35,159 nucleotides of DNA from a virus (Duplodnaviria > Caudoviricetes). A model generated the notes under the pieces. That model was not told the DNA's origin, did not search any database, and worked only from the letters and a program-made list of their open reading frames with translations. The DNA is taken from positions 1 to 35,159 of IMG/VR virus record IMGVR_UViG_3300046779_001090; one strand, written 5' to 3'. A program made the translations under genes and the position numbers. Positions 24-35,126 of this stretch are shown piece by piece; position 1 is the first letter of the stretch, and each line of letters begins with the position of its first letter.

Positions 24-267
24 TACCCTAAAGAGCTAAAACGCCACAGGATGCCCGTACACGCCACGAAAACACGGCCACGAACTAACGCTCATAAGCA
101 ACCCTAAACGACCGCCTACAAGCCACCTAACCCCACCTAAAACATAGACCCCCACCCTTATAGGGGGGAGTGGGTCAAATTCTGCCAGATCACGTGTCTA
201 TGACACCCCGCCCGCAGTGTTACGCACCTATACGCATTTCAAACTTTTCCTACGCTAGGCTTTATGT

Positions 268-8570: not shown

Positions 8571-9749
8571 ATGGCAAAGATTAATGGCGTTGTTTCAGTT
8601 TGGTCTAATAGTCCAACTCAACCTACTGGTTATGGTCAGCAAGCGGCTTATCTGATTGACCGTCTAAAGCGTGACGGTGCTGATGTAGCAGCTATGTCAA
8701 ATTATGGTGTCGAGGGAAACATTGTCACCTATAAGTCGCCGTATGGTGAGATACCTCACTACCCTCGTGGTATGGATCCGTATTCTAACGATGTGGCTCC
8801 TATGCACCACGCTCATTGGAAGTCTAAGAATCCTGGTAAGAGCGATGTTTGGATTTCGTTGTATGACGTTTGGGTTTTGAACAATCCTGCGTTTGACAAG
8901 ATGAACATTGCTTCGTGGGTTCCGTTGGATCACGTGACTATGCCACCTAAAGTCAAGGCTTGGTTGGAGAAACCGAACGTGACTCCTATTGCTATGGCTC
9001 CTAATGGTGTACGTCAGATGGAGCAGAATGGCATTGCTTGTGAGTATGTGCCTCACGCTATTGATACAAAGATTTTTAGACCGACTGACAAGATTGACGG
9101 TCAGGATGCTCGTGAGTTTATGGGTATTACTGACGAGTTTGTTGTGGGTATGAACGCAGCTAACAAGGCTTCTGGTCTGATACACCGTAAGGCGTTTTCT
9201 GAGAACCTTATGGCTTTTAGTATTTTCCGTGAACGTCACCCTGACGCTGTGCTTTACATTCACACTGATCCACTTGGGTCGGCTGGTGGCTGGAACTTAA
9301 TCAAGATGTTGAAGGCTTTTGGTATTCCTAAGGAAGCCATTATGTTCCCGCCGTATGTTGACTACAAGTACGGGATGCCTCAGTCTGATTTGGCTGGGCT
9401 TTACTCGGCTATGGACGTGTTCTTGGCTCCGTCTTATGGTGAGGGCTTTGGTTTGGGCACGATTGAGGCTCAGGCGTGTGGTACTCGTGTTATTGGCTCT
9501 AACTGGGGTGCGACACCTGATCTTGTGGCCGAGGATTCTTGGCTTATTGATGGTCAGCCTATGTGGGATTCTGGGCAGGACGCTATCTGGCAGGTTCCAT
9601 TGATTCCATCTATTGTGGAGGCTTTAGAACAGGCTTATAAGGCTGATCGTGGTGCATCGCAGGTTGCTATTGATTTCGCTAAAGACTTCGATGTAGATAC
9701 CGTTTTTGACAAGCACTGGCTTCCTGTGTTGAAGAAGTTACTTAAGTGA
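8571..9749 (+). CDS. glycosyltransferase, GT-B fold (GT4-like)
   Basis: PTGYG near the N-terminus, VPHAIDT, DVFLAPSYGEGFGLGTIEAQACG (E-x7-E); own TATGCT -10 box and GAAAGGGAA RBS. Confidence 0.92.
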   Translation: MAKINGVVSVWSNSPTQPTGYGQQAAYLIDRLKRDGADVAAMSNYGVEGNIVTYKSPYGEIPHYPRGMDPYSNDVAPMHHAHWKSKNPGKSDVWISLYDVWVLNNPAFDKMNIASWVPLDHVTMPPKVKAWLEKPNVTPIAMAPNGVRQMEQNGIACEYVPHAIDTKIFRPTDKIDGQDAREFMGITDEFVVGMNAANKASGLIHRKAFSENLMAFSIFRERHPDAVLYIHTDPLGSAGGWNLIKMLKAFGIPKEAIMFPPYVDYKYGMPQSDLAGLYSAMDVFLAPSYGEGFGLGTIEAQACGTRVIGSNWGATPDLVAEDSWLIDGQPMWDSGQDAIWQVPLIPSIVEALEQAYKADRGASQVAIDFAKDFDVDTVFDKHWLPVLKKLLK

Positions 9750-10393
9750 TTCCGGTACTTGGCTTTGCAACTCTCAAGAGATTTGATCTTGCTGATCGCC
9801 TTCTTCGTTCCGTGGATTACCCTGTGGAACACCTCGTGGTGGTTGATAATTCGGGAACTCAGGAATGGAACCCTGTCAAACCTGCTTTGGTACGGAATTT
9901 ATGGGTTATCCGTGTGCCATTTGGCCTTGGTCTTGTTGGTGCATGGAACCTGATAGTAAAATCAACACCATACGCACCGTATTGGGTGCTTATAAACGAT
10001 GATGCTTGGTTCGCCCCAGGTTCATTGAAGAAAATTGAAGAAGGTGTAGATACTAATGCTCTCAACTTTGTGGACATTGTTCCGGCGTGGTCGTGTGTTG
10101 TATTCGGTGAGGGCATGGTTGAAAAAGTTGGTCTTTACGATGAGCGTTTCTACCCTCTTTATTTTGATGACAACGACTTGGAACGTAGAGTGGATTACGC
10201 CGAGGTTCCGAAGAATCACATCGCAGCTAAGGTCTTTCACGAGAACTCCTCAACGCTCAATAGTGGGTATCAGGTACAGAACCAGAGGTCTTTTGTGGCA
10301 AATCACACGCTTTATGAAATTAAGGCGAGAGAAGATGATTTCTCGCAAGGTGAGTGGAGTCTCAAAGTGCGGAGGGCGAACCGATGGGACTGA
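9746..10393 (+). CDS. glycosyltransferase, GT-A fold (GT2-like)
   Basis: VVVDNSG, WVLINDDAWF, GLYDERFYPLYFDDNDL motifs. Confidence 0.88.
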   Translation: MIPVLGFATLKRFDLADRLLRSVDYPVEHLVVVDNSGTQEWNPVKPALVRNLWVIRVPFGLGLVGAWNLIVKSTPYAPYWVLINDDAWFAPGSLKKIEEGVDTNALNFVDIVPAWSCVVFGEGMVEKVGLYDERFYPLYFDDNDLERRVDYAEVPKNHIAAKVFHENSSTLNSGYQVQNQRSFVANHTLYEIKAREDDFSQGEWSLKVRRANRWD

Positions 10394-10821
10394 GTGTTTA
10401 CACGGGCGGGACGTTCGATTTGTTCCATGCGGGACACGTGGAGTTCCTGAGGAGATGTGCAGAGCTTGGCTCTGTGACTGTTTCGCTAAATGAGGATGAG
10501 TTTATTGAAAAATACAAAGGTAAAAGACCTGTTATCTCTTATGCGGAGCGTGAGGCTGTCCTCTTGGGATGTCGTTGGGTTGATCGGGTTGTTCCTAACA
10601 TGGGTGGTGCTGATAGTCGGGTCGCTATCAGTTATTGTCGTCCTGATTTGATTGTTATTGGTTCTGATTGGGCTAGGCGTGATTATTATGCCCAGATGCA
10701 GTTTGATCAGGATTGGTTGGATGAGCGTGGGATTGGGCTTTGCTACATTCCTTACACTCAGGGCATCTCTAGTACGGCTATTAAAGAAAGACTACGTTTC
10801 AACGGTAGAATAGAGTCATAG
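10384..10821 (+). CDS. cytidylyltransferase-family nucleotidyltransferase (TagD/RfaE-like)
   Basis: YTGGTFDLFHAGH (HxGH), GSDW, YTQGISST; likely start ATG 10384. Confidence 0.9.
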   Translation: MGLSVYTGGTFDLFHAGHVEFLRRCAELGSVTVSLNEDEFIEKYKGKRPVISYAEREAVLLGCRWVDRVVPNMGGADSRVAISYCRPDLIVIGSDWARRDYYAQMQFDQDWLDERGIGLCYIPYTQGISSTAIKERLRFNGRIES

Positions 10822-20018: not shown

Positions 20019-21206
20019 ATGTTGAAAGTCGCTAGATCTTTAGCGGCTACTACGCTGGCCTTCGGTTCTCTTTTTATTGCTTCTCCTGCACAGGCTTCTT
20101 GTGTGACAGTTCAGCAATCTCAAACTATTGCAGCTCTTGACACGGCTACTTCTGAGTCGGTTGTTAGGACTTTAGAAACTTGCGGTGGAGACGACATCTC
20201 TTACCAAGTTCCGCTTACTGTTGATGTGACTTTTGATGGTCAACAATTTTCAAGCGTTTACGCAACCACAAACTCGGTCATTACTTTTGGTAGACCAGAT
20301 AACACTTACTGGGATTACCCTGGCACACCTTCTATAAGCCTTTATTCAATGGACTGGGTTGTGTTCCCAGATCGTGGGGATGAACATCTCATTATTCAAA
20401 CTTCAGACGGTGGTTTCCGTGTTGACATTTCTGCGAGACCTTATGGTTTGTGGAATTATGTGGGCACTGCTCCTACCAGCATTATTATTACCGCCGCTAT
20501 TAACGCTGATGGTACTGTCGCTATTGCTTACGCCTTGAGTGGCCCTGAGTATCAGTCTCGTACTGGTGTGCGTTTGATTGATGGGTCTGTTGTGACTTTA
20601 GAGCAGTATGGGATTGTTCAGGTTGAGGAGCCTATCGTTTTGACTCCTGAGCCTGTCCAGCCAACACCGGAACCGACCCCTGAGCCAACTCCTGAGCCTA
20701 GCCCTGAGCCTACTCAAAGTCCTTCGCCAGAACCCACAGTATTACCACAACCGCCAGTAGTAGAACCAGCACCATACGTCCCTCCTGTCGAACCTACTCC
20801 TGAGCCTACCGTAGAACCTGAGCCGGAACCTGAGCCTTCTGTGCCTGTTGTCGAGCCAACACCTGAGCCTAGCCCAGAGCCTAGCCCTGAACCTGCACCG
20901 GAGCCGACAGTAGAACCAACTCCTGAACCAACAGTCGAGGAAACACTGGCTGTTCTCGCTGAGGAAGCAAAAGCCGATGATCCGGTTGTACCTCAAGAAA
21001 TAGCAGCCATTCCACTGATCGGTAACGCAGCTGTCGCCGTGTTAGAAGCCTTTAACGCTTTGGGCAACATTGGAGCCGACATGACACCTGAGGTTCGTGA
21101 ACAATCAGAAAAAGTTGTTATCTCTGCTGTTATTGCAGGGAACATTGCTACGACTGCTGTGGCGACAGCCTCAGTTTCATCTTCAACTGTTAGGAGAATA
21201 AAGTGA
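20019..21206 (+). CDS. exported Pro/Glu/Thr-rich surface protein
   Basis: Signal peptide ending A-Q-A, beta-rich domain, ~100 aa PTPE/PSPE linker, hydrophobic C-terminus ending RRIK. Confidence 0.75.
20643..20932 (+). repeat. degenerate 12 bp coding repeats ([12 protein letters not shown])
   Basis: Recurrent CCTGAGCC units within the exported-protein gene. Confidence 0.8.
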
Positions 21207-22382: not shown

Positions 22383-22682
22383 CTAATCGCTAGTTTTGTA
22401 TTTACGCCTTTTTGATTTCATGTCACGGCGATCTTCGGCACTTGTGCCACCCCAAATACCGTAGGGTTGGGCACTGACCACACCATAGGTGAAGCACTCT
22501 TTTAGCACAGGACACGTGCCACAAATGGCTTTGGCTTCTCGTGTCTCAAATTGTCGCTCGTTCCATTTAGGCTGATCTTCTGGGTAGAAGATGTGAGGAA
22601 CTTGCTCGCAGGGCACACCACCTTCATTCTCTATTGCTTTGTATAGGGCAATTAGGAGTCTGTCGTTAGTTGCGGCTGTCAT
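22383..22682 (-). CDS. whiB: WhiB-family Fe-S transcription regulator
   Basis: C..(FYP)..AKAICGTCPVLKEC..GIWGG..RR plus a basic tail; TACAGT -10 box 6 nt before ATG 22682. Confidence 0.95.
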   Translation of the reverse strand: MTAATNDRLLIALYKAIENEGGVPCEQVPHIFYPEDQPKWNERQFETREAKAICGTCPVLKECFTYGVVSAQPYGIWGGTSAEDRRDMKSKRRKYKTSD

Positions 22683-22732
22683 ACCCATACTGTATGTTGA
22701 TGAGTATCCAGTTGTCAAACTGAAAGGGAAAA

Positions 22733-23611
22733 ATGAGAAAAGGTAAAGTTTTTTCGGAGAAGGCAGAGTTTCTTGGCTTCTTTGAGAATCAGTCGCCTGA
22801 GTGGTATGAGATCCGTAAGGGTCGTATTGGTGGGTCTCAGATTGGTGCAGCTTTAGGGTTGTCACCGTGGGAATCACCTATTACTTGTTATTACAAGGTG
22901 CGTGGTGAGATTCCGGATACGGAAGCGTCTACTGCCATGCGTTTAGGTACGTTGTTGGAGGATCCGTTGTTGGAGTTGTTTCAACAAGAGAATCCGATGT
23001 TTGATGTGTTTAAGTCTGGGTCTTACATTTCTAAGTCTCATCCTTGGTTGTTGGCTAACCCTGATGCGTTTTATCGTGACGAGAAGGGTCGTTTGCATCT
23101 GATTGAGGTTAAGACGACAGCAGATTTTTGGGAGTCAGCGTCAGACATCCCACCTAACTACATTGCACAGATTCAGTCGTATTTGTGGTTATTTCAGATT
23201 GAACACGCTACCGTTGTAGCCCTGTGTGGTGGACGCTACAAGACTTTTGATGTGGAGTTTGACCAGTTCTTGGCTGAGGCTAATTTGTCGGCTCTACGCC
23301 GGTTCTGGGATCATGTTGAGGTTGGGTCTCAACCGGCTTGGGATGGTTCTGATTCGACTTATGAGACTATGAGGCGGTTGAAGCCTGAGATTCATGAGGA
23401 CGACATTGAGGAACTTGGTGATTTGGGTATGTATTTGGCTTTGGCAAAAGATGAGTTAGAGGTTGCTAAGAGCAAGTATCAGGAACTACAATCAAGAACA
23501 CTAGAGGCTATGGGCTCTGCTAAGTGGGGGGCGATCAATGATGACATTGTTTTGTTCCGTACTCAGCGTGGTGTTGGTGCACCGTACATTCAATGGAAAA
23601 AGGGAAAATGA
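22733..23611 (+). CDS. YqaJ / lambda-exonuclease-family recombination nuclease
   Basis: WYEIRKGRIGGS, GTLLE, ANPDA, IEVKT, YIAQIQ. Confidence 0.93.
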   Translation: MRKGKVFSEKAEFLGFFENQSPEWYEIRKGRIGGSQIGAALGLSPWESPITCYYKVRGEIPDTEASTAMRLGTLLEDPLLELFQQENPMFDVFKSGSYISKSHPWLLANPDAFYRDEKGRLHLIEVKTTADFWESASDIPPNYIAQIQSYLWLFQIEHATVVALCGGRYKTFDVEFDQFLAEANLSALRRFWDHVEVGSQPAWDGSDSTYETMRRLKPEIHEDDIEELGDLGMYLALAKDELEVAKSKYQELQSRTLEAMGSAKWGAINDDIVLFRTQRGVGAPYIQWKKGK

Positions 23612-25687: not shown

Positions 25688-26344
25688 TTGCTAGATCTAT
25701 TTACGGAAAAAAATAAAACATCTGCGTTTGCAGATTATGAAGTTATGGCAATACCAGCCTTAATTGGTAAAAAGTTCATTATTGAAAATCACTATTCAAA
25801 GGGTGTGCACAATGGGCCTATGTGCTTTGGTCTTTTAAAAGACGGAGAATTACAAGGGGTTTGTGCATTTGCTTCTCCAAGTTCTGAAAATGTAAGATCC
25901 AGTATTTTTGGCGAAGAATTTAAAGGCTCAGTAACAGAACTTCACAGATTGGTTTTATTGGATGAAGTACCTAAAAACGCTGAATCGTTCTTCATTGTTC
26001 GTGCCTTAAAAGAATTAAAAAAACAAAGACCGTACTACAAAGCAGTTATTAGTTTTGCAGACCCAACACAGAATCATTTAGGCATCATTTATCAAGCGAC
26101 AAACGCTATCTACTGTGGCACAAGTAGCCCTGCCACGTTCTATTTAGACGAGGATGGAAGATTACGCCACCCACGACAAAATGGCAAAAACATAACCGCT
26201 TCAATAGCAAAATCTTACGGATGGACTCCAACAAAACGACAAGGTAAACATAGATACGTCTATCTAATAGCGGAGAATAAAACAGAATTGAAAGAATTAA
26301 AAAGACTATTTAAGTTGGAAAGTTTGCCATATCCCAAAAGGTGA
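25688..26344 (+). CDS. mom: Mom-family (GNAT) DNA adenine-modification protein
   Basis: FIIENHYS, ELHRLVL...KNAESFFI, ISFADPTQNHLGIIYQATN match the Mom-like signature; AT-rich relative to neighbours. Confidence 0.8.
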   Translation: MLDLFTEKNKTSAFADYEVMAIPALIGKKFIIENHYSKGVHNGPMCFGLLKDGELQGVCAFASPSSENVRSSIFGEEFKGSVTELHRLVLLDEVPKNAESFFIVRALKELKKQRPYYKAVISFADPTQNHLGIIYQATNAIYCGTSSPATFYLDEDGRLRHPRQNGKNITASIAKSYGWTPTKRQGKHRYVYLIAENKTELKELKRLFKLESLPYPKR

Positions 26345-26352
26345 CCTATAAT
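26324..26352 (+). promoter_or_regulatory. sigma70/SigA promoter
   Basis: TTGCCA (26324-26329), 17 bp, TATAAT (26347-26352). Confidence 0.8.
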
Positions 26353-26358
26353 CAAATC

Positions 26359-26680
26359 TTCAAGCAGAGGTTCTTAAACCGTCAGACTGCTATAAAACTG
26401 GCTCTCGCTTCACAAGCGGAGATACTGGGCGTTAGAGGCCGTCAGTTTGGCATACCCGACACAGTGAAGCCTTAGATTTGGGTGAAAGTTTCTGAGAGTG
26501 GAACAGAGTTTAGTTGGCGGTGCTACTTCGTATCTACCTAGCATCCTTGCAGTTGGCTAAACACATGGCGTAGATAGTCTTACCCGTGAGGATAGACCCA
26601 TTAGAAAACCTGACAGTCCTTATACCTGTGGTTTGAGATGGTCGTCTAGGCCATTTCTACCCTCTTGAGCCTTTCCCTGT
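26359..26680 (+). ncRNA. putative large structured non-coding RNA
   Basis: ORF-free, directly behind a consensus promoter; about 10 nested helices with G-U pairs and a 7 bp pseudoknot (TATCTAC 26531-26537 / GTAGATA 26570-26576). Confidence 0.7.
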
Positions 26681-26697
26681 GATTACGCTACGCTTGT

Positions 26698-26979
26698 GTG
26701 GTGGATGATAATCGGGTTTTGTGTAAGAGGTGTGGCCTTTCGTGGGAGGTTCCTCTGGTTAAACGCCGTCAGCAGGTGGTGTTGTGTGTGTCGTGTCGTA
26801 TGCGTCCTGCTTTGAGTATTCAGTATGGTTCGTCTCGGTGTGTGCCTTGGCGTGGTGATTTTGATCTTGAGGATAATCCGATGGTTGCGGGTGGTTTGTT
26901 GTTGCCTGGGGTTCGGTTGTGTGGGCATCGGGATTGTGTGAATCCTCATCATATTGAACTTGTCGTTGATGGGGAGTAG
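26698..26979 (+). CDS. Zn-finger protein with an HNH-like Zn-binding loop
   Basis: CKRC..CVSC ribbon, CVPWRG, CGHRDCVNPHH; possible leaderless start GTG 26701. Confidence 0.65.
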   Translation: MVDDNRVLCKRCGLSWEVPLVKRRQQVVLCVSCRMRPALSIQYGSSRCVPWRGDFDLEDNPMVAGGLLLPGVRLCGHRDCVNPHHIELVVDGE

Positions 26980-27023
26980 TGTTGTAGTACCCTGACTTGT
27001 TCAGGACTATGGAAAGAGCTGCT

Positions 27024-27431
27024 ATGGCTAAGTGTGATATTACGGTTCGTGGGAATCTTGGGGCTGATGTTGAGTCTAAGGTTTCTAAGGCTGGCAAGAT
27101 GTATTATGTGCTGCGTGTTGGGTCTACTCCTTCTAAGAAGAACGCTTCTGGTGAGTGGGAGAATGGCGAGACTATGTGGTTTAATGTGACTTCTTTTGAG
27201 GAGTTGAATCCTTTTGAGTTTGTGAAGGGTACTCCTGTTGAGGTTCATGGTTCGTTTGTGTTTAGGACTTATGCGAAACGTGATGGGTCTTTGGGTGTTG
27301 CGTTGGATGTTGTTGCTAACAAGATTGAGCGTGTTGTTCGTGAGCAGAAGAAGGTTGATTTTAAGGAGCAGGATTTGATTCCTGAGTCTTGGACTCCTAT
27401 TTCTGTGCACATGGATGATGCACCTTTTTAA
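27024..27431 (+). CDS. ssb: single-stranded DNA-binding protein
   Basis: ITVRGNLGAD, TMWFNVT, KGTPVEVHG, acidic DDAPF tail. Confidence 0.93.
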   Translation: MAKCDITVRGNLGADVESKVSKAGKMYYVLRVGSTPSKKNASGEWENGETMWFNVTSFEELNPFEFVKGTPVEVHGSFVFRTYAKRDGSLGVALDVVANKIERVVREQKKVDFKEQDLIPESWTPISVHMDDAPF

Positions 27432-29875: not shown

Positions 29876-31029
29876 CACCAGCCTCAAAGGTTGATGTTCC
29901 TAAAGACTGGCGACCTGCTGTCGAGTTCAATGGGTCTGAGGGTGAAGCCACTACGCAGGGCTTTTTACCTGATGAGAAACCCGACTTTGACAAGTTCTTA
30001 GTTGAGGCTGGATTTGATCCGGCTGAGATTGAGATTGTTGGAGAACCTAGAACTAGCCGATGGCAGGTTGCCCGACCTTTCCCTCTTGATCCGCAGTGGT
30101 TGACGGCGTATAGGTTCCGGTTCCGTAAGAAGGGTGTCTTTGAGACGGATTTGCCTACTTTGTACGCTCAGGCTAAGAAGGCTGTGCCTAAACCGGTTAG
30201 GTCTGGTGTTGATGGTAAAGCGTTTGTGATTGTGGCCGCTGACTTTCAGGTTGGCAAGGTTGGGTCTAGGGGTAATACTCAGGATTTGGTTGCTCGTGTG
30301 TTTGAGTCTTATAAGGCTATTGAGGCGAAACTTAAAGCGGGCAAGTATGAGAAGGTCATTATTGTTGACGCTGGGGACATTATTGAGTCTGTGTCTAATC
30401 AGGCTTCTATGGCACAGTTGGAATCAAACGACCTGAGCCCGATGCAACAGGTGGATTTGGCAGCTGCTTTGATGTGGGATCTGATCAAGATTGCTCACAA
30501 GTACGCACCAGTCACTTACGCCTCTGTAGCGTCTAACCACTGCCAGTTCCGGTTCAACGGTCAAACAGTTGGTAAGCCAGGTTTGGACGACTGGGGCATT
30601 GTTATTCTCCAGCAACTTCGCCGTCTAACAACCGAACTCGGTATGGATGTCAATTACCTGATTCCACAACCGTATGACGAATCGCTCGCATTTGACGTAT
30701 GGGGCGATAACTTTCACGTTTTGGCAGTAGCACACGGTCATCAGGCTAAACGCCCTAACAGCGTCCAACAGTGGCTGGAGAAGCAAGCATTTGGTCAAGG
30801 GCCATGCTCAAACTTCACTACTTTCATTTCTGGTCACTTTCACCACCTCAGGGTTGAGGAAATTGGTCAGGCACACAACGGAGGATCTCGGTGGTGGGTT
30901 CAAGCCTCAACAAGCGATAACGGTTCTGATTGGTTTCGTCTAATGTCAGGAAATGACTCCAGTACGGGCATTACTTGTTTTGAACTGGTTAAGGGTTTGC
31001 ACTTTAAGGGCACAGTATATAAACTGTAA
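29854..31029 (+). CDS. calcineurin-like metallophosphoesterase (Mre11/SbcD-like fold)
   Basis: ADFQVGK, GDIIE, SNH, HGH, GHFHH metal-binding motifs. Confidence 0.85.
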   Translation: MPVLEDLTPASKVDVPKDWRPAVEFNGSEGEATTQGFLPDEKPDFDKFLVEAGFDPAEIEIVGEPRTSRWQVARPFPLDPQWLTAYRFRFRKKGVFETDLPTLYAQAKKAVPKPVRSGVDGKAFVIVAADFQVGKVGSRGNTQDLVARVFESYKAIEAKLKAGKYEKVIIVDAGDIIESVSNQASMAQLESNDLSPMQQVDLAAALMWDLIKIAHKYAPVTYASVASNHCQFRFNGQTVGKPGLDDWGIVILQQLRRLTTELGMDVNYLIPQPYDESLAFDVWGDNFHVLAVAHGHQAKRPNSVQQWLEKQAFGQGPCSNFTTFISGHFHHLRVEEIGQAHNGGSRWWVQASTSDNGSDWFRLMSGNDSSTGITCFELVKGLHFKGTVYKL

Positions 31030-31042
31030 GAAAAGGGGATTT

Positions 31043-31300
31043 ATGTGTTCAGTAGAGAATTGCAGTAGAAACAAATACACTCGTGGGCTGTGTCAAGCAC
31101 ACTACATGGCGGCTTATCGTGTCAGAAAATCTGGTTTGTCAAAATCTGGTTTAGATCCGGCTATAAATCTGGTTGTTGCCGAAAAATTTGGTTCAAAAAT
31201 CTGCTCGGAGTGTGCAGCTCCTGTGCATGGCAAAGGGTTATGTGGGACGCATTACGCCAGGTTGCTACGGGCGAGAAAGAAGCAAAATGAAACTGTATAA
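31043..31300 (+). CDS. tandem C3H zinc-finger protein
   Basis: Two C..C....GLC..HY units; AAGGGG RBS before ATG 31043. Confidence 0.65.
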   Translation: MCSVENCSRNKYTRGLCQAHYMAAYRVRKSGLSKSGLDPAINLVVAEKFGSKICSECAAPVHGKGLCGTHYARLLRARKKQNETV

Positions 31301-31511
31301 GGTTTATAGGGCATACAAGCGTGGGGTTGAAACCGAACGTACTCGTTGTATCAACGTTGTTAAAGATGTTTTTAATGGCATAGAAACTTACGATATTGAA
31401 TTGATGCTTGAAATTAGAGCTCGGGTAGATAAAGCACTTGGTGAGATTTCTTTGATTGGTGATTTAAAGGGCACTGGTTTGGAAACCCCTATTAAAACTG
31501 AAAAAAGGTAA
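31287..31511 (+). CDS. hypothetical protein
   Basis: MKLYKVYRAYKRGVETERTRCI...; fills the gap. Confidence 0.55.
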   Translation: MKLYKVYRAYKRGVETERTRCINVVKDVFNGIETYDIELMLEIRARVDKALGEISLIGDLKGTGLETPIKTEKR

Positions 31512-31513
31512 AA

Positions 31514-31687
31514 ATGCCGGTCTATGACTTTAAGTGTGAGTGTGGGAAAACAAACACGCTAACCGTTGGTTTCAGAGAAATTGATGGGTTTCAGTGCCGG
31601 TGTGAGTGTGGCAAATTGATGACACGCCAGTACGGTGTTGGAGCCATTACCTTTAAGGGATCTGGTTGGGGCAAGGATAAGAACTAG
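31514..31687 (+). CDS. FmdB-like zinc-ribbon protein (57 aa)
   Basis: MPVYDFKCECG...CECGKLMTR...FKGSGW. Confidence 0.85.
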   Translation: MPVYDFKCECGKTNTLTVGFREIDGFQCRCECGKLMTRQYGVGAITFKGSGWGKDKN

Positions 31688-32013
31688 TGGGTCGTTTTCC
31701 TAAACCTTGTGCTGATTGTGGTGTGTTAACTTCTGGTGGTAATCGGTGCGACTATCACGAAAATTTGGTTAAAAAACTTCACGACATTAAACGGGCTGAG
31801 GTTAAGAAAAATTCTGGTCAGTATTCTGGTTCTTATCGGGCTAGAGCTGCGGCTGTTCGTGCAAGTGCTTTGGTGTGTTGGTTGTGTGGTGAGGGTGCTC
31901 GTGCTGGGGATCCTTGGGAAGCGGATCACGTTATTCCGGCAGAATCTGGTTCGACAGCGGAGTTGAGAGCTGCACATCGGACTTGTAATCGTAAGCGGTC
32001 AAATCTGGTTTGA
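31687..32013 (+). CDS. HNH endonuclease (packaging-associated, HK97 gp74-like)
   Basis: KPCADCG, CWLCG, ADHVIP, AAHRTCNRKRS. Confidence 0.85.
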   Translation: MGRFPKPCADCGVLTSGGNRCDYHENLVKKLHDIKRAEVKKNSGQYSGSYRARAAAVRASALVCWLCGEGARAGDPWEADHVIPAESGSTAELRAAHRTCNRKRSNLV

Positions 32014-32140
32014 AAATTTGGTCAGAAAAAATTTGGTCAAAATCTGGTTAAAAAATTTGGTTGGAAAAAATCTGGTCAAAATCTGGTTGGAAAATTTGGT
32101 CAAAATTTGGTCAAAATCTGGTCAAAATCTGGTCAAAAAT
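32001..32140 (+). repeat. array of 11 AAAT(C/T)TGGT repeats, ~11-15 bp spacing
   Basis: Counted directly; the last copies form exact 11 bp CAAAATYTGGT tandem units. Confidence 0.95.
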
Positions 32141-32163
32141 CACGATGACGGACAAAAATCGGC

Positions 32164-32224
32164 TCGAACAGGTGTTCGTTTGTCAAGCCCCTGTTGATAA
32201 CTATTTATTCGAACAGGTGTTCGG
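32164..32224. promoter_or_regulatory. two LexA (SOS) boxes, actinobacterial type
   Basis: TCGAAC-AGGT-GTTCG at 32164-32178 and 32209-32223; consensus TCGAAC-N4-GTTCGA. Confidence 0.75.
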
Positions 32225-32262
32225 TGGATAAGTCTGCGGATAACTTAACCGCTTGTGGATAA
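32192..32262 (-). promoter_or_regulatory. cluster of four co-oriented DnaA boxes
   Basis: TGTTGATAA 32192, GGTGGATAA 32223, TGCGGATAA 32235, perfect TGTGGATAA 32254 (reverse complement TTATCCACA). Confidence 0.75.
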
Positions 32263-32403
32263 CTTAAAACATGTCTAAGCGTGGCAGTGCATGAGTTACG
32301 AGCTAGGCACGAGAGCCGATAGCATGGCAACCACCGCCGGCCTATGGCCTAAATGTAATGAGTTGACCGTTACCTAATTGTTATAAAAAATGAACGTTCA
32401 AAC

Positions 32404-32433
32404 TTGACACTTATAGCGTTTTTTTACTAATCT
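32404..32433 (+). promoter_or_regulatory. strong sigma70/SigA early promoter
   Basis: TTGACA, 18 bp, TAATCT with an AT-rich upstream tract; hairpin CCTAGTAA/TTGCTAGG downstream. Confidence 0.75.
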
Positions 32434-32478
32434 ATTCCTAACCTAGTAAATTGCTAGGCGTGAATAAAGGGGTAAAAC

Positions 32479-32637
32479 GTGAAGCTAATCAGACTAATAG
32501 GCATAAGTGCCGCTGTAGGCCTAATTTTAGGCTTTATAGATAACCTAACCGACCGTAACCTAGCCGCTATTTTAGGCGTGTCTCTAATCTTAGGCGGCCT
32601 AATTCTTATCGTGAAAATGGAGCGTAAAAATGACTAA
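32479..32637 (+). CDS. small two-TM membrane protein (52 aa)
   Basis: MKLIRLIGISAAVGLILGFIDNLTDRNLAAILGVSLILGGLILIVKMERKND; AAGGGG RBS. Confidence 0.7.
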   Translation: MKLIRLIGISAAVGLILGFIDNLTDRNLAAILGVSLILGGLILIVKMERKND

Positions 32638-33367
32638 CGTAACCGCTCAGAAAATTGCCGACATGCTAACCGAAAACACTGGCGGCTCGATGCTCGACTC
32701 CGGCGGCTATTACGGCCGCCACTGGGAGCGTAACGCCGGCAAAACGGTTGCAGACTTTGAGAGTGCACCGGCCGGCACTATAGATGAATATGGTGAGATT
32801 ACGCTCGACCTATTCCATTACCTAAACGACCGCTTAGAGTACGCCCCGGCCCTAGATGCCGCATGGTCAAAATATGATGGTGATCACCCTAATGAATCAT
32901 GGAGCCACAACATAGAGACATTTTTAGACATGCTAGGGGTTGCCAGTGACTCAGGATATTACGAGGGTGGCCGCTGGGGGTTCAACACTTATAACTTTGG
33001 AAATTGTCTACTTAGTCAAACTATCCAAAGTACAGCGTTTAGCTTAGGTAATACCGAATATCTTATTTTGCAAGTGCACGGCGGTTGTGACGTACGAGGT
33101 GGATATACTAAGCCGGTCATTTTCACTGGAGATATTGAGTCGGTAATCTGCGGCGTAAGTGATGCCATGCTCCGATGCAGTGAGTGTGAGTTTTATATCG
33201 ACTATTGCGATGGTCAAGTCAACTATTACGAATTACCCGATGCTGAAGCTACGCCGGATATGCTAATCGAGCTAACCGTACCCCGTGAGTGGGAGCCATC
33301 CGATGACTGGCATGCCGGTAACGGTTGCCCTATTGACCACAAGCCGCTAATCGTACAAGGGAGATAA
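32630..33367 (+). CDS. hypothetical early protein (acidic, C-terminal Cys cluster)
   Basis: 245 aa; MLTENTG..LDSGGYYGRHWERN, QVHGGCDVRGGYT. Confidence 0.75.
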   Translation: MTNVTAQKIADMLTENTGGSMLDSGGYYGRHWERNAGKTVADFESAPAGTIDEYGEITLDLFHYLNDRLEYAPALDAAWSKYDGDHPNESWSHNIETFLDMLGVASDSGYYEGGRWGFNTYNFGNCLLSQTIQSTAFSLGNTEYLILQVHGGCDVRGGYTKPVIFTGDIESVICGVSDAMLRCSECEFYIDYCDGQVNYYELPDAEATPDMLIELTVPREWEPSDDWHAGNGCPIDHKPLIVQGR

Positions 33368-33372
33368 CCAAA

Positions 33373-33948
33373 ATGGAGCCAATTACAACACACGATATAA
33401 ACGACACGACACGCCTAGCCGCCTACCTTGATTATGGCACTTATGACTGGAGCGAGCTAACGGGCGATGGTGTCGGAATTTACACGCTTGATATTGCTCG
33501 CAACTTAGGCATTACTAATGGCGGCCAGTGCACGGATGACCTTGACCGTCTAACCCGTGACCTTGACCGTGACCGCTGGGAGCGAGCTATCGGCCTATAT
33601 ATGCACCTAGCTAACCGGACATATAAAACGCTGGCATTACGTGGCTACTCGCAGGGTGAGTGGGCCGATGTTATTGTCTATGCCGATGCCGGCCCTAATG
33701 GTGAATGGCTAAATAGTAAAAATGCCACCGCCGATATTGAGGCATGGTTCAGGGGGGACATTTACACGGTGGCCCTTGAGTCGCTAGAGACTTACGTCAA
33801 CGCTAAAAATGGCGACACTTTGCAACGCTGGGAGATTACCGAATCATGCGGCATGGTAACCCTATCGAATGACTATACGCTGGCCGATGCCGGCCGTGAC
33901 ATATTCGGCAGTGATGCAGTGGCTAAAAATGAGTTGATCAACTCATGA
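33373..33948 (+). CDS. hypothetical early protein (acidic)
   Basis: 191 aa; RGYSQGEW and WFRGDIY motifs. Confidence 0.75.
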   Translation: MEPITTHDINDTTRLAAYLDYGTYDWSELTGDGVGIYTLDIARNLGITNGGQCTDDLDRLTRDLDRDRWERAIGLYMHLANRTYKTLALRGYSQGEWADVIVYADAGPNGEWLNSKNATADIEAWFRGDIYTVALESLETYVNAKNGDTLQRWEITESCGMVTLSNDYTLADAGRDIFGSDAVAKNELINS

Positions 33949-34226
33949 AGTCACAAGATTACACGGTCACAAGCTGGGCCGATGGTTACGGTAATTGGCA
34001 TGCTAAAGCAACCTTTACCGTACCGCTAGGCAACACGGGTGAAGCTGAGAGAGTGGCCGAAAATGCCCACCGCTCATGCCGCCGTGTTATACGTAATGAA
34101 ATAAGTTACCGGATGGCCGGCCGGCCACGCCGCCTATCGTATTACGTGAGTGCCAATGAGTTTGAGCCAGGAATCGGCCGGCTCAAGTCAATAACAATAA
34201 GTGAACAGATAAGGGGTAAAAAATAA
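33945..34226 (+). CDS. hypothetical early protein
   Basis: 93 aa, ATGA coupling. Confidence 0.65.
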   Translation: MKSQDYTVTSWADGYGNWHAKATFTVPLGNTGEAERVAENAHRSCRRVIRNEISYRMAGRPRRLSYYVSANEFEPGIGRLKSITISEQIRGKK

Positions 34227-34227
34227 A

Positions 34228-34563
34228 ATGAGTAATTACACGTTTATAAGTGGAGACACTTACGAGGTAACCGCCGGCAGTGTTGTTGAAGCTGAGGGAA
34301 TTATCAGCGACTATCTGAGTGGCAACCTAGCCAATAGTGATGCAGTGACCGCCGGCGAAACTAACACGGTAATTTATAGCATCGAGACCGAATCGGGGTT
34401 CGAGCCTAATCAGCTTCATTACTCGATGGATGAACTAGGAGTTTGCTACGATACGGACCACCTAATCATGCTATTTCAAGAGTTGCTGGATGATGGTTAT
34501 ACGGGCCTAAGTTTCGGGTTAGTTATTGACCTTATAAAGTCAAGACTGGAGCCGGTGGCCTAG
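34228..34563 (+). CDS. hypothetical early protein (very acidic)
   Basis: 111 aa, AAGGGG RBS. Confidence 0.65.
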   Translation: MSNYTFISGDTYEVTAGSVVEAEGIISDYLSGNLANSDAVTAGETNTVIYSIETESGFEPNQLHYSMDELGVCYDTDHLIMLFQELLDDGYTGLSFGLVIDLIKSRLEPVA

Positions 34564-34670
34564 TGGATAAGTATCTCAAAACGATAGGAGCCGGATGGTT
34601 GTATATCGTGCTCGTGTCTATCGGCGTAATGGCCGACCAAACTAATAAAACTATTCGCAAGAATTACTAA
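34563..34670 (+). CDS. tiny membrane peptide (35 aa)
   Basis: MDKYLKTIGAGWLYIVLVSIGVMADQTNKTIRKNY; TAGTG coupling. Confidence 0.5.
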   Translation: MDKYLKTIGAGWLYIVLVSIGVMADQTNKTIRKNY

Positions 34671-34685
34671 AGGGAGTAAATAAAA

Positions 34686-35126
34686 ATGGTGATCAACTCA
34701 ACTAACACAACCGCCACGGATGAAGAGACTTATTACCGTGTAAAGTTTGCTAACGTCTCGCATGAGGTATATCAGTGGGCGACCAGTGCCAAAGCTGCCG
34801 CGTGGGATGCACTCGATGAGCTACTCGATAGCGGTTACCCTGAGCCACTGGGAGCGGCCGCTATTCGGCCGGCAGTATATAAAGAGTGGAATCATTCGAC
34901 ATGGAGATATCAAAACGGGGGCAACTTTATACACGACCTAACCCCGTGCGATAGTTGTCAAACACTTATGGACACGGAGACCCACCGTGAGGAACTAGGC
35001 CTATGCCTAAAATGCTCCGATGACTATTTCAACCACACTTGCGACAAGTGCGGAGCCGATGAAGTCCACAACCTAATCGCACCATTTACACGACTTTGCG
35101 ACAAGTGTCAAGAGCTACCCGAATAA
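34686..35126 (+). CDS. hypothetical early protein with C-terminal Zn ribbons
   Basis: Four CxxC pairs; AAGGGAG RBS. Confidence 0.7.
   Translation: MVINSTNTTATDEETYYRVKFANVSHEVYQWATSAKAAAWDALDELLDSGYPEPLGAAAIRPAVYKEWNHSTWRYQNGGNFIHDLTPCDSCQTLMDTETHREELGLCLKCSDDYFNHTCDKCGADEVHNLIAPFTRLCDKCQELPE

Follow-up and report, generated by a model that had tools for sequence, protein, structure and literature searches.

LexA-type and DnaA-type boxes at an optional gene island, and a structured RNA as candidate replication origin, in a family of small cos siphoviruses

Among the described systems closest to the locus reported here is the injection-stop region of phage T5 (IRD'-spacer-IRC', Repeat Region 3). 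In the T5 genome (AY587007; L536), an E. coli LexA-type palindrome at position 9332 is followed by two pairs of DnaA boxes on the same strand, with the boxes of each pair 12 bp apart (9358/9370 and 9419/9431); TGTCAAG lies between these elements, and polar repeats are found nearby. Consensus palindromes of this type are present in both repeat modules of T5 (6137 and 9332). The DnaA pairs are covered in a preprint by Davison (10.1101/866236), the accessible part of which makes no mention of LexA or SOS. In the tectivirus GIL01, according to the available part of its description (PMC4551915), a CGAAC-N4-GTTCG box is located upstream of the operon and no phage repressor was detected; there the boxes belong to the promoter region of P1, and lysogeny has been demonstrated. 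Two further systems concern RNA-based replication: RNA II of ColE1 (PMC5043065) and the origins of cluster A mycobacteriophage prophages (Wetzel 2020, PMC7157519), the latter being, in the literature covered and as far as the accessible text of that paper goes, the only RNA-based phage origins described. The same literature, in which subscription papers were mostly not included, holds no description of the RNA or of the LexA/DnaA cassette presented below for these phages.

The DNA analysed here (the window) is a viral stretch of 35,159 nucleotides. It belongs to an HK97-like cos siphovirus, a relative of Pontimonas phage phiPsal1, which is the closest named phage (TerL 61%) and was termed lytic by its depositors in the accessible part of their publication (PMC6106888). 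The gene set includes terminase, portal, capsid, WhiB, YqaJ, Mom, SSB, RusA and a terminal HNH gene. Searches of genome collections yielded 12 matches, under five loci, all on phage-sized contigs (each of at most 34.4 kb), and four of them in Microbacteriaceae or Actinomycetota bins. Given the inferred cos site (Table 1), the gene island described below would be located at the right end of the packaged genome. The window seems complete save for about 70 nt at the junction, a gap judged from the relative L270; the break (35159/1) falls within a terminator-like hairpin.

Several other features of this genome were recorded. WhiB (22383-22877) is the sole annotated gene on the minus strand and is transcribed away from the YqaJ gene; this is the position where temperate phages keep their repressor, and translation of WhiB probably begins further downstream than the listed start. 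The region between the capsid and head-tail genes (8571-10821) encodes a cytidylyltransferase and two glycosyltransferases, likely as a virion glycosylation module, and phiPsal1 carries two glycosyltransferases in the matching place. A 395-aa protein with Pro-Glu repeats (20019-21206), adjoining the lysis genes, has no family match.

Table 1 Features of the window and of the predicted regulatory sites.
Feature	Position	Strand	Remarks
Inferred cos site	206..216	.	Many relatives' contigs begin just after a shared motif slightly upstream of terS; L100 begins at window position 217
Predicted RNA promoter, TTGCCA-17-TATAAT	26324..26352	+	Similar promoter at the same offset in 9/17 copies
Structured pseudoknotted non-coding RNA, candidate replication primer	26358..26697	+	In rep-gene slot
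6-nt direct repeat flanking the last hairpin	26625-26630, 26676-26681	+	Both copies change together across lineages
Zinc-finger-like gene and ssb	26698..27431	+	Third-position G+T 0.95 and 0.93; candidate displaced-strand footprint
5 extra AAAT(C/T)TGGT copies	31127..31769 (31127-31192, 31761)	+	Inside upstream genes
Terminase-associated HNH gene	31687..32013	+	PHROGs; borders the locus on the left; directly next to cos and terS in the 16 relatives without an island
11 AAAT(C/T)TGGT repeats	32001..32133	+	Polar, period of about 11 bp; HNH/island border
LexA-type box 1	32164..32179	.	Core at 32165, invariant in 6/6 aligned relatives
Spacer between LexA boxes, TGTCAAG-C4-6-(C)TTGACA	32181..32197	.	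Conserved in relatives
DnaA-like 9-mer, one mismatch	32192..32200	-	Window-specific; TTGACA there in L001, L269 and L006; absent in L102 and L270
LexA-type box 2	32209..32224	.	Core at 32210; 0-1 change in 6/6 aligned relatives
Three DnaA-type boxes (32223, 32235, 32254)	32223..32262	-	Start-to-start 12 and 19 bp
GTTAC-N6-GTTAT direct repeat, candidate OmpR-type host regulator site	32369..32384	+	Enriched in islands
Predicted sigma-70-type promoter of the island, TTGACA-18-TAATCT	32404..32433	+	Motif scan; absent from a stricter scan's list
Optional island, six small unannotated genes, likely early	32479..35126	+	Third codon positions without strand skew

Host-type boxes at the border of the optional island

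An earlier note on this DNA had read positions 32001-32262 as an oriC-like locus in which four DnaA boxes of one orientation are interleaved with two LexA boxes behind AT-rich repeats. All of these motifs are present where the note had placed them, with the four DnaA-type boxes on one strand, and they exceed chance as judged from 300 dinucleotide shuffles of the window. The cluster of four DnaA boxes within 72 bp was reached in 0/300 shuffles (three boxes appeared in one), two exact LexA cores never occurred, and the AAAT(C/T)TGGT repeat, found in 16 copies in the window, gave a mean of 0.5 and a maximum of 4 copies. The two LexA-type cores are identical, and the DnaA-type boxes carry one mismatch each except for the perfect one at 32254 (1/4). 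The repeat block is 71% AT, at a distance of 52 bp from the nearest DnaA box. The 9-mer at 32192 arose in the window by drift of the right half of the spacer. An assembly artefact was ruled out by the relatives and by a public contig that covers 30361-32761 without any difference, the sequencing run of which may be the window's own source. A cos or pac site was likewise rejected at this place, as cos maps near 206-216. BLAST searches with 32001-32262 against plasmids and phages gave no match.

The boxes appear to correspond to the LexA and DnaA site types of the host, as the earlier note had proposed, since they match sites in the likely host family. The LexA-type motif was found in 44 of 61 genomes of this family, and its reversed control in 4. 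A scan of 31 neighbouring ORFs placed it upstream of recA (three times), one Pol III alpha gene and one IMS gene. Clusters in the dnaA regions of these hosts consist of the same 9-mer as in the phage, but in both orientations, and the 12-bp DnaA box pair also occurs in one host oriC (G023). One host-family ORF downstream of a LexA box (L435:1607-2932) matches Pfam Diphtheria_T (E 8e-18); this match may be a repeat-family artefact, as ORFs of similar size at such sites match DUF222.

Among the relatives, 210 HNH-bearing loci were collected, of which 145 remained after dereplication. These were divided into (i) 81 loci with an island after the HNH gene, (ii) 16 with the HNH gene next to terS and (iii) 48 that were too short and were excluded. 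The optional island, of about 3 kb, is located before cos, and its genes are small and variable (630 ORFs in 250 families); its proteins had no functional match in PHROGs, Pfam, NCBIfam or Atlas, and a test for restriction-site depletion in the island gave no clear pattern. Exact LexA boxes are confined to the island: they occur in 49/81 islands vs 0/16 island-less loci, with 70 sites in 278 kb of islands and 0 in 409 kb upstream, and allowing one mismatch gives 62/81 and 2/16, respectively. At least three repeats follow the HNH gene in 36/81 island loci and in 0/16 island-less ones, and over the 1.5 kb immediately upstream of the island the repeats are polar across the family (272 on the + vs 21 on the - strand). 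DnaA clusters (at least two boxes within 600 nt) are limited to 7/81 islands.

An alignment of the window with five relatives, i.e. six of the seven DnaA-cluster loci, separates the two types of box. Both LexA boxes and the intervening spacer hardly vary, which bears out the conservation that the earlier note had suggested as a check. The number and spacing of the DnaA boxes are not conserved: there are 2 to 4, with three perfect ones at the window's spacing in L001 and L269, two perfect ones in L006 and L102, and degenerate ones in L270. The overlap of LexA and DnaA boxes at 32223 and their interleaving are found in the window only, and the competition site proposed for 32209-32231 is thus absent from the five aligned relatives.

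Between the boxes and the island genes lie a predicted promoter and a direct repeat, the latter a candidate MtrA/GlnR site. Sites of the form GTTAY-N6-GTTAY number 86 in 278 kb of islands vs 23 in 409 kb upstream, and in relatives the LexA boxes often adjoin such a repeat and a -35. In the window, 190-240 bp separate the LexA boxes from the predicted -35 downstream of them, and the boxes are clear of the predicted promoter. The arrangement of GIL01 P1 and of several host sites, with a LexA box inside the promoter it represses, is thus not found in the window, despite the common box upstream of an operon and the lack of a detected phage repressor.

The window's clade shares with the T5 injection-stop region (10.1101/866236) same-strand DnaA pairs 12 bp apart (3-bp gap), a LexA-type palindrome, TGTCAAG, polar repeats and a position at the inner edge of variable terminal genes, which in the window would be the first to enter. 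The window differs in having cos-type ends, no long terminal repeat, no inverted twin module and no match to A1/A2; in addition, its LexA box is actinobacterial and DnaA boxes are found in 7/81 islands only. We considered whether the locus is a T5-like entry signal, with DnaA and LexA at the inner border of the island pausing or anchoring the DNA so that the island genes act first. The 12-bp pair with flanks nearly identical to those of T5, the polarity of the repeats and their presence only together with the island, and the end of the strand skew at the island border are all in keeping with such a role. We nevertheless regard it as unlikely: 74/81 islands have no DnaA cluster, A1/A2 are unmatched among the window proteins, boxes and repeats, seen relative to the strand, are ordered differently from those of T5, and LexA boxes of relatives also occur mid-island and next to cos. 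Moreover, two-step entry has been demonstrated in no phages other than T5 and BF23, and the DnaA model is still a hypothesis in the available text of the preprint (10.1101/866236).

A wider scan for DnaA boxes that come after a LexA box, run without a shuffled control, returned 82 viral loci in 31 distinct contexts. Seven of the 31 come from one group of 15-kb gut phages, in which the cassette lies near the genome ends; 5/5 of these phages with the cassette encode a Pol B of the protein-primed type and 4/5 have inverted terminal repeats. In these 15-16 kb Pol B phages (L016-L095, e.g. L029 and L072; records G152-G156), the LexA box stands one base from the DnaA box near both ends. Five other loci (L032, L053, L075, L091 and L096) have one to three LexA boxes closely surrounded by 7-13 DnaA-type boxes. 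Of the larger, incomplete LexA/DnaA records, just 1/5 contained Pol A. The predicted LexA-beside-DnaA cassette recurs in phages with their own polymerase, namely phi29-like gut phages and T5.

Such recurrence in unrelated phages would also suit a decoy, the alternative named in the note, whereby rising phage copies titrate LexA (raising RecA and repair and blocking division) and DnaA (stopping host initiation). The boxes are indeed flexible in position, and many stand in tandem at a distance from promoters. We consider this quite improbable, as there are just 2-3 LexA and 2-4 DnaA sites per genome, a sink would not need strict confinement to the island, and the DnaA boxes of the window are partly degenerate.

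The rep slot and a structured RNA

In most relatives, the position between the second HNH gene and the zinc-finger-like gene is occupied by a gene for a lambda-O-like Rep (63/77 loci with upstream DNA). Tandem iteron-like repeats were found inside 4/4 rep genes tested, and the rep slot therefore likely holds the origin of these relatives. The earlier note had described the window phage as one without recognisable replisome, integrase or repressor, and profile searches agree: no Rep, loader, helicase, integrase or repressor was detected. Rep, loader and DnaB are lacking in the window and in G001, G003, G009 and G010, and six-frame HMM searches of these five genomes with filters off revealed no hidden or frameshifted Rep. 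PHROGs and other profile searches of the window proteins gave no match to an integrase, par gene or repressor.

The note had proposed that such a phage may start replication from host DnaA at an origin gated by host LexA. A host-DnaA origin, or a DnaA-dependent helicase-loading site gated by LexA, in the window's Rep-less clade would be in line with several observations: DnaA clusters were seen only in Rep-less phages (5/5 of known Rep status), the 12-bp pair is shared with the host oriC of G023, and the AT-rich block is on the side where unwinding would happen. Among Rep-bearing loci, 0/41 have two perfect DnaA boxes and 2 have at least two one-mismatch boxes. The absence of Rep from all five DnaA-cluster phages of known status would agree with a part in replication, but on the exonuclease tree these five form one (starred) clade.

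Two complete Rep-less genomes speak against the origin reading. G003 has two LexA boxes and no DnaA cluster; G009 lacks the island as well as any LexA box or perfect DnaA box. As both do without a DnaA cluster, reading the locus as the origin is unsupported. Of the ten RNA-bearing loci (see below) with DNA past the HNH gene, five have a DnaA cluster and five do not, two of the latter being truncated. The locus resembles oriC of the host family in the 9-mer, the 12-bp pair and the AT-rich neighbour, but differs in that its boxes have one orientation, are perfect in 1/4 cases, vary in number and overlap and are dispensable in Rep-less relatives. The skew profile, which the note had suggested inspecting, lends no help either: cumulative GC skew flattens at the locus without inverting, and the same composition step occurs at the border of 63 islands without DnaA boxes. 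A DnaA-trio pattern was found neither in the phage nor, equally, in two host oriC controls. A dormant state is unsupported by an integrase, a partition gene or a prophage-length contig. A LexA-gated host-DnaA origin thus appears very unlikely, and positions 32001-32262 are, with high probability, not the primary origin.

A better candidate lies 5.5 kb away, in the rep slot. Every Rep-less phage examined has a related non-coding stretch of about 340 nt in this slot, and 17 distinct copies were collected. Among 122 loci spanning the slot (85 distinct), 70 had Rep only (68 by a custom HMM, plus 2 missed by it and recognised by PHROGs as divergent Rep), 15 had the RNA only and 0 had both. Targeted scans had raised the share of RNA-bearing loci, many of them closely related, and the ratio should therefore not be read as a frequency nor the counts as independent. 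RNA and rep thus exclude each other in all 85 loci, and at least four changes between the RNA and Rep labels are seen on a quick exonuclease tree (72 rows). The Mom-family gene just before the RNA (25688-26344; AT-rich, third-position G+T 0.42) is found only in the window among close kin, and other RNA-bearing phages have methylase or nuclease-like genes in its place.

The structure is a manual drawing based on an alignment of 11 copies and on the window, which gives it an advantage over slid controls; on these copies 95.8% of cells are paired and 38 of 78 pairs have changed on both sides (compensatory), including 3/7 pseudoknot pairs, while 0/500 shuffles reach this level and slid controls give 34-43%. 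Variants with G-U pairs and with GNRA loops in the aligned copies suggest that the RNA has the sense of the + strand. Single-sequence folding gave a z-score of 0.01, and RNAalifold on 15 divergent copies, poorly aligned, kept 22 pairs only. The direct repeat flanking the last hairpin measures 6-9 nt across copies and is the best or tied-best match with the RNA's own 3' end in only 6/8 divergent copies; no consistent partner for it was found within the RNA. No match to the RNA was found in Rfam or by plasmid and phage BLAST, and a sequence-only model, run without a positive control, had 0 matches in 141 host-family genomes. A loose pattern of the RNA hit chance loci only, none with a profile match.

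Third-position G+T in the two genes that follow is 0.85 and 0.80 at 14 RNA loci vs 0.55 and 0.56 at 66 Rep loci; the two groups do not differ upstream or, far downstream, at the distant exonuclease. Taken copy by copy (n=17), 10 show a strong step, 5 a modest one and 2 none. Such a spike would be expected from deamination of a displaced + strand, but strong transcription could contribute to it or be its source. One divergent copy (L512:3914-4276), located about 5 kb from the zinc-finger-like gene, has no downstream G+T step.

The RNA resembles the ColE1 RNA II origin, as presented in the available part of PMC5043065, in the lack of an initiator protein, the predicted promoter, the folded RNA and the downstream strand bias. 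It differs in length (about 340 vs 550 nt), in being pseudoknotted, in having no G-tract (its longest G run is 3-4) and no conserved antisense promoter in its 5' part, and in the lack of a plasmid match. With the cluster A origins, following the accessible text of PMC7157519, it shares actinobacterial phages and a non-coding RNA in place of a Rep gene; those origins are parABS-linked and belong to prophages of phages with their own Pol I, whereas the window RNA replaces a lambda-O-like gene and no par genes were detected. A profile comparison with the Alma and LadyBird ori regions of cluster A gave no match. By homology, antisense and par features the RNA is a member of neither class.

The missing ColE1 hallmarks (G-tract, antisense RNA), together with a predicted promoter of its own and a course directly into the zinc-finger-like gene, might instead mark the RNA as a cis-acting leader or antiterminator for the ssb operon and not a primer. 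This seems rather doubtful to us, as a leader would have no need to exclude rep in 85/85 loci over at least four changes and would leave three complete genomes without an initiator. We favour the RNA as the probable replication origin, given its covariation and its mutual exclusion with rep; by analogy, initiation there is likely ColE1-like and RNA-primed.

Proposed course of infection and significance

For the locus itself, a host-factor cassette acting mainly on transcription of the island genes is the reading we prefer; judged from the distribution of the motifs, it has close to, and at most, an evenly balanced standing. Lambda serves as the model for entry: by analogy with it, the right genome end would enter the cell first. 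On entry, LexA (family-wide), DnaA (in the window's clade only) and an OmpR-type regulator would bind, and the bound host factors may hold back or adjust transcription from 32404 in response to DNA damage and the state of replication. As the LexA boxes are so distant from the -35, simple occlusion would not account for such control; looping, a roadblock or interplay with the activator-like site at 32369 would be required.

Host RNA polymerase would transcribe the RNA from 26324, and the folded transcript would form a persistent hybrid at its own 3' end. The first copy of the direct repeat possibly pairs with the template strand and aids the hybrid; the model for this pairing is the ColE1 mechanism that Masukata and Tomizawa reportedly described in 1990. 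The hybrid would then prime rightward DNA synthesis with displacement of the + strand, as with ColE1 RNA II. That both parts apply, the cassette tuning the likely early genes of the island while replication starts at the folded RNA, is to our mind evenly balanced.

The analysis removes a tempting but probably wrong assignment of the origin. For Rep-less small phages it offers a testable answer to where replication starts: a 340-nt RNA that is interchangeable with rep and of which compensatory variants exist in nature. A single family of small cos phages with natural plus/minus variants could, in addition, test the role of the long-unexplained DnaA boxes of T5. As a tentative overall picture, held with somewhat less than even confidence, small lytic siphoviruses of planktonic actinobacteria may repeatedly swap a lambda-O-like initiator and its iterons for a pseudoknotted, so far uncatalogued primer RNA whose guide repeat would let it invade its own template, and thereby replicate without a phage initiator, helicase or polymerase, while a T5-convergent LexA/DnaA cassette would let the first-entering genes sense the damage and replication state of the host.
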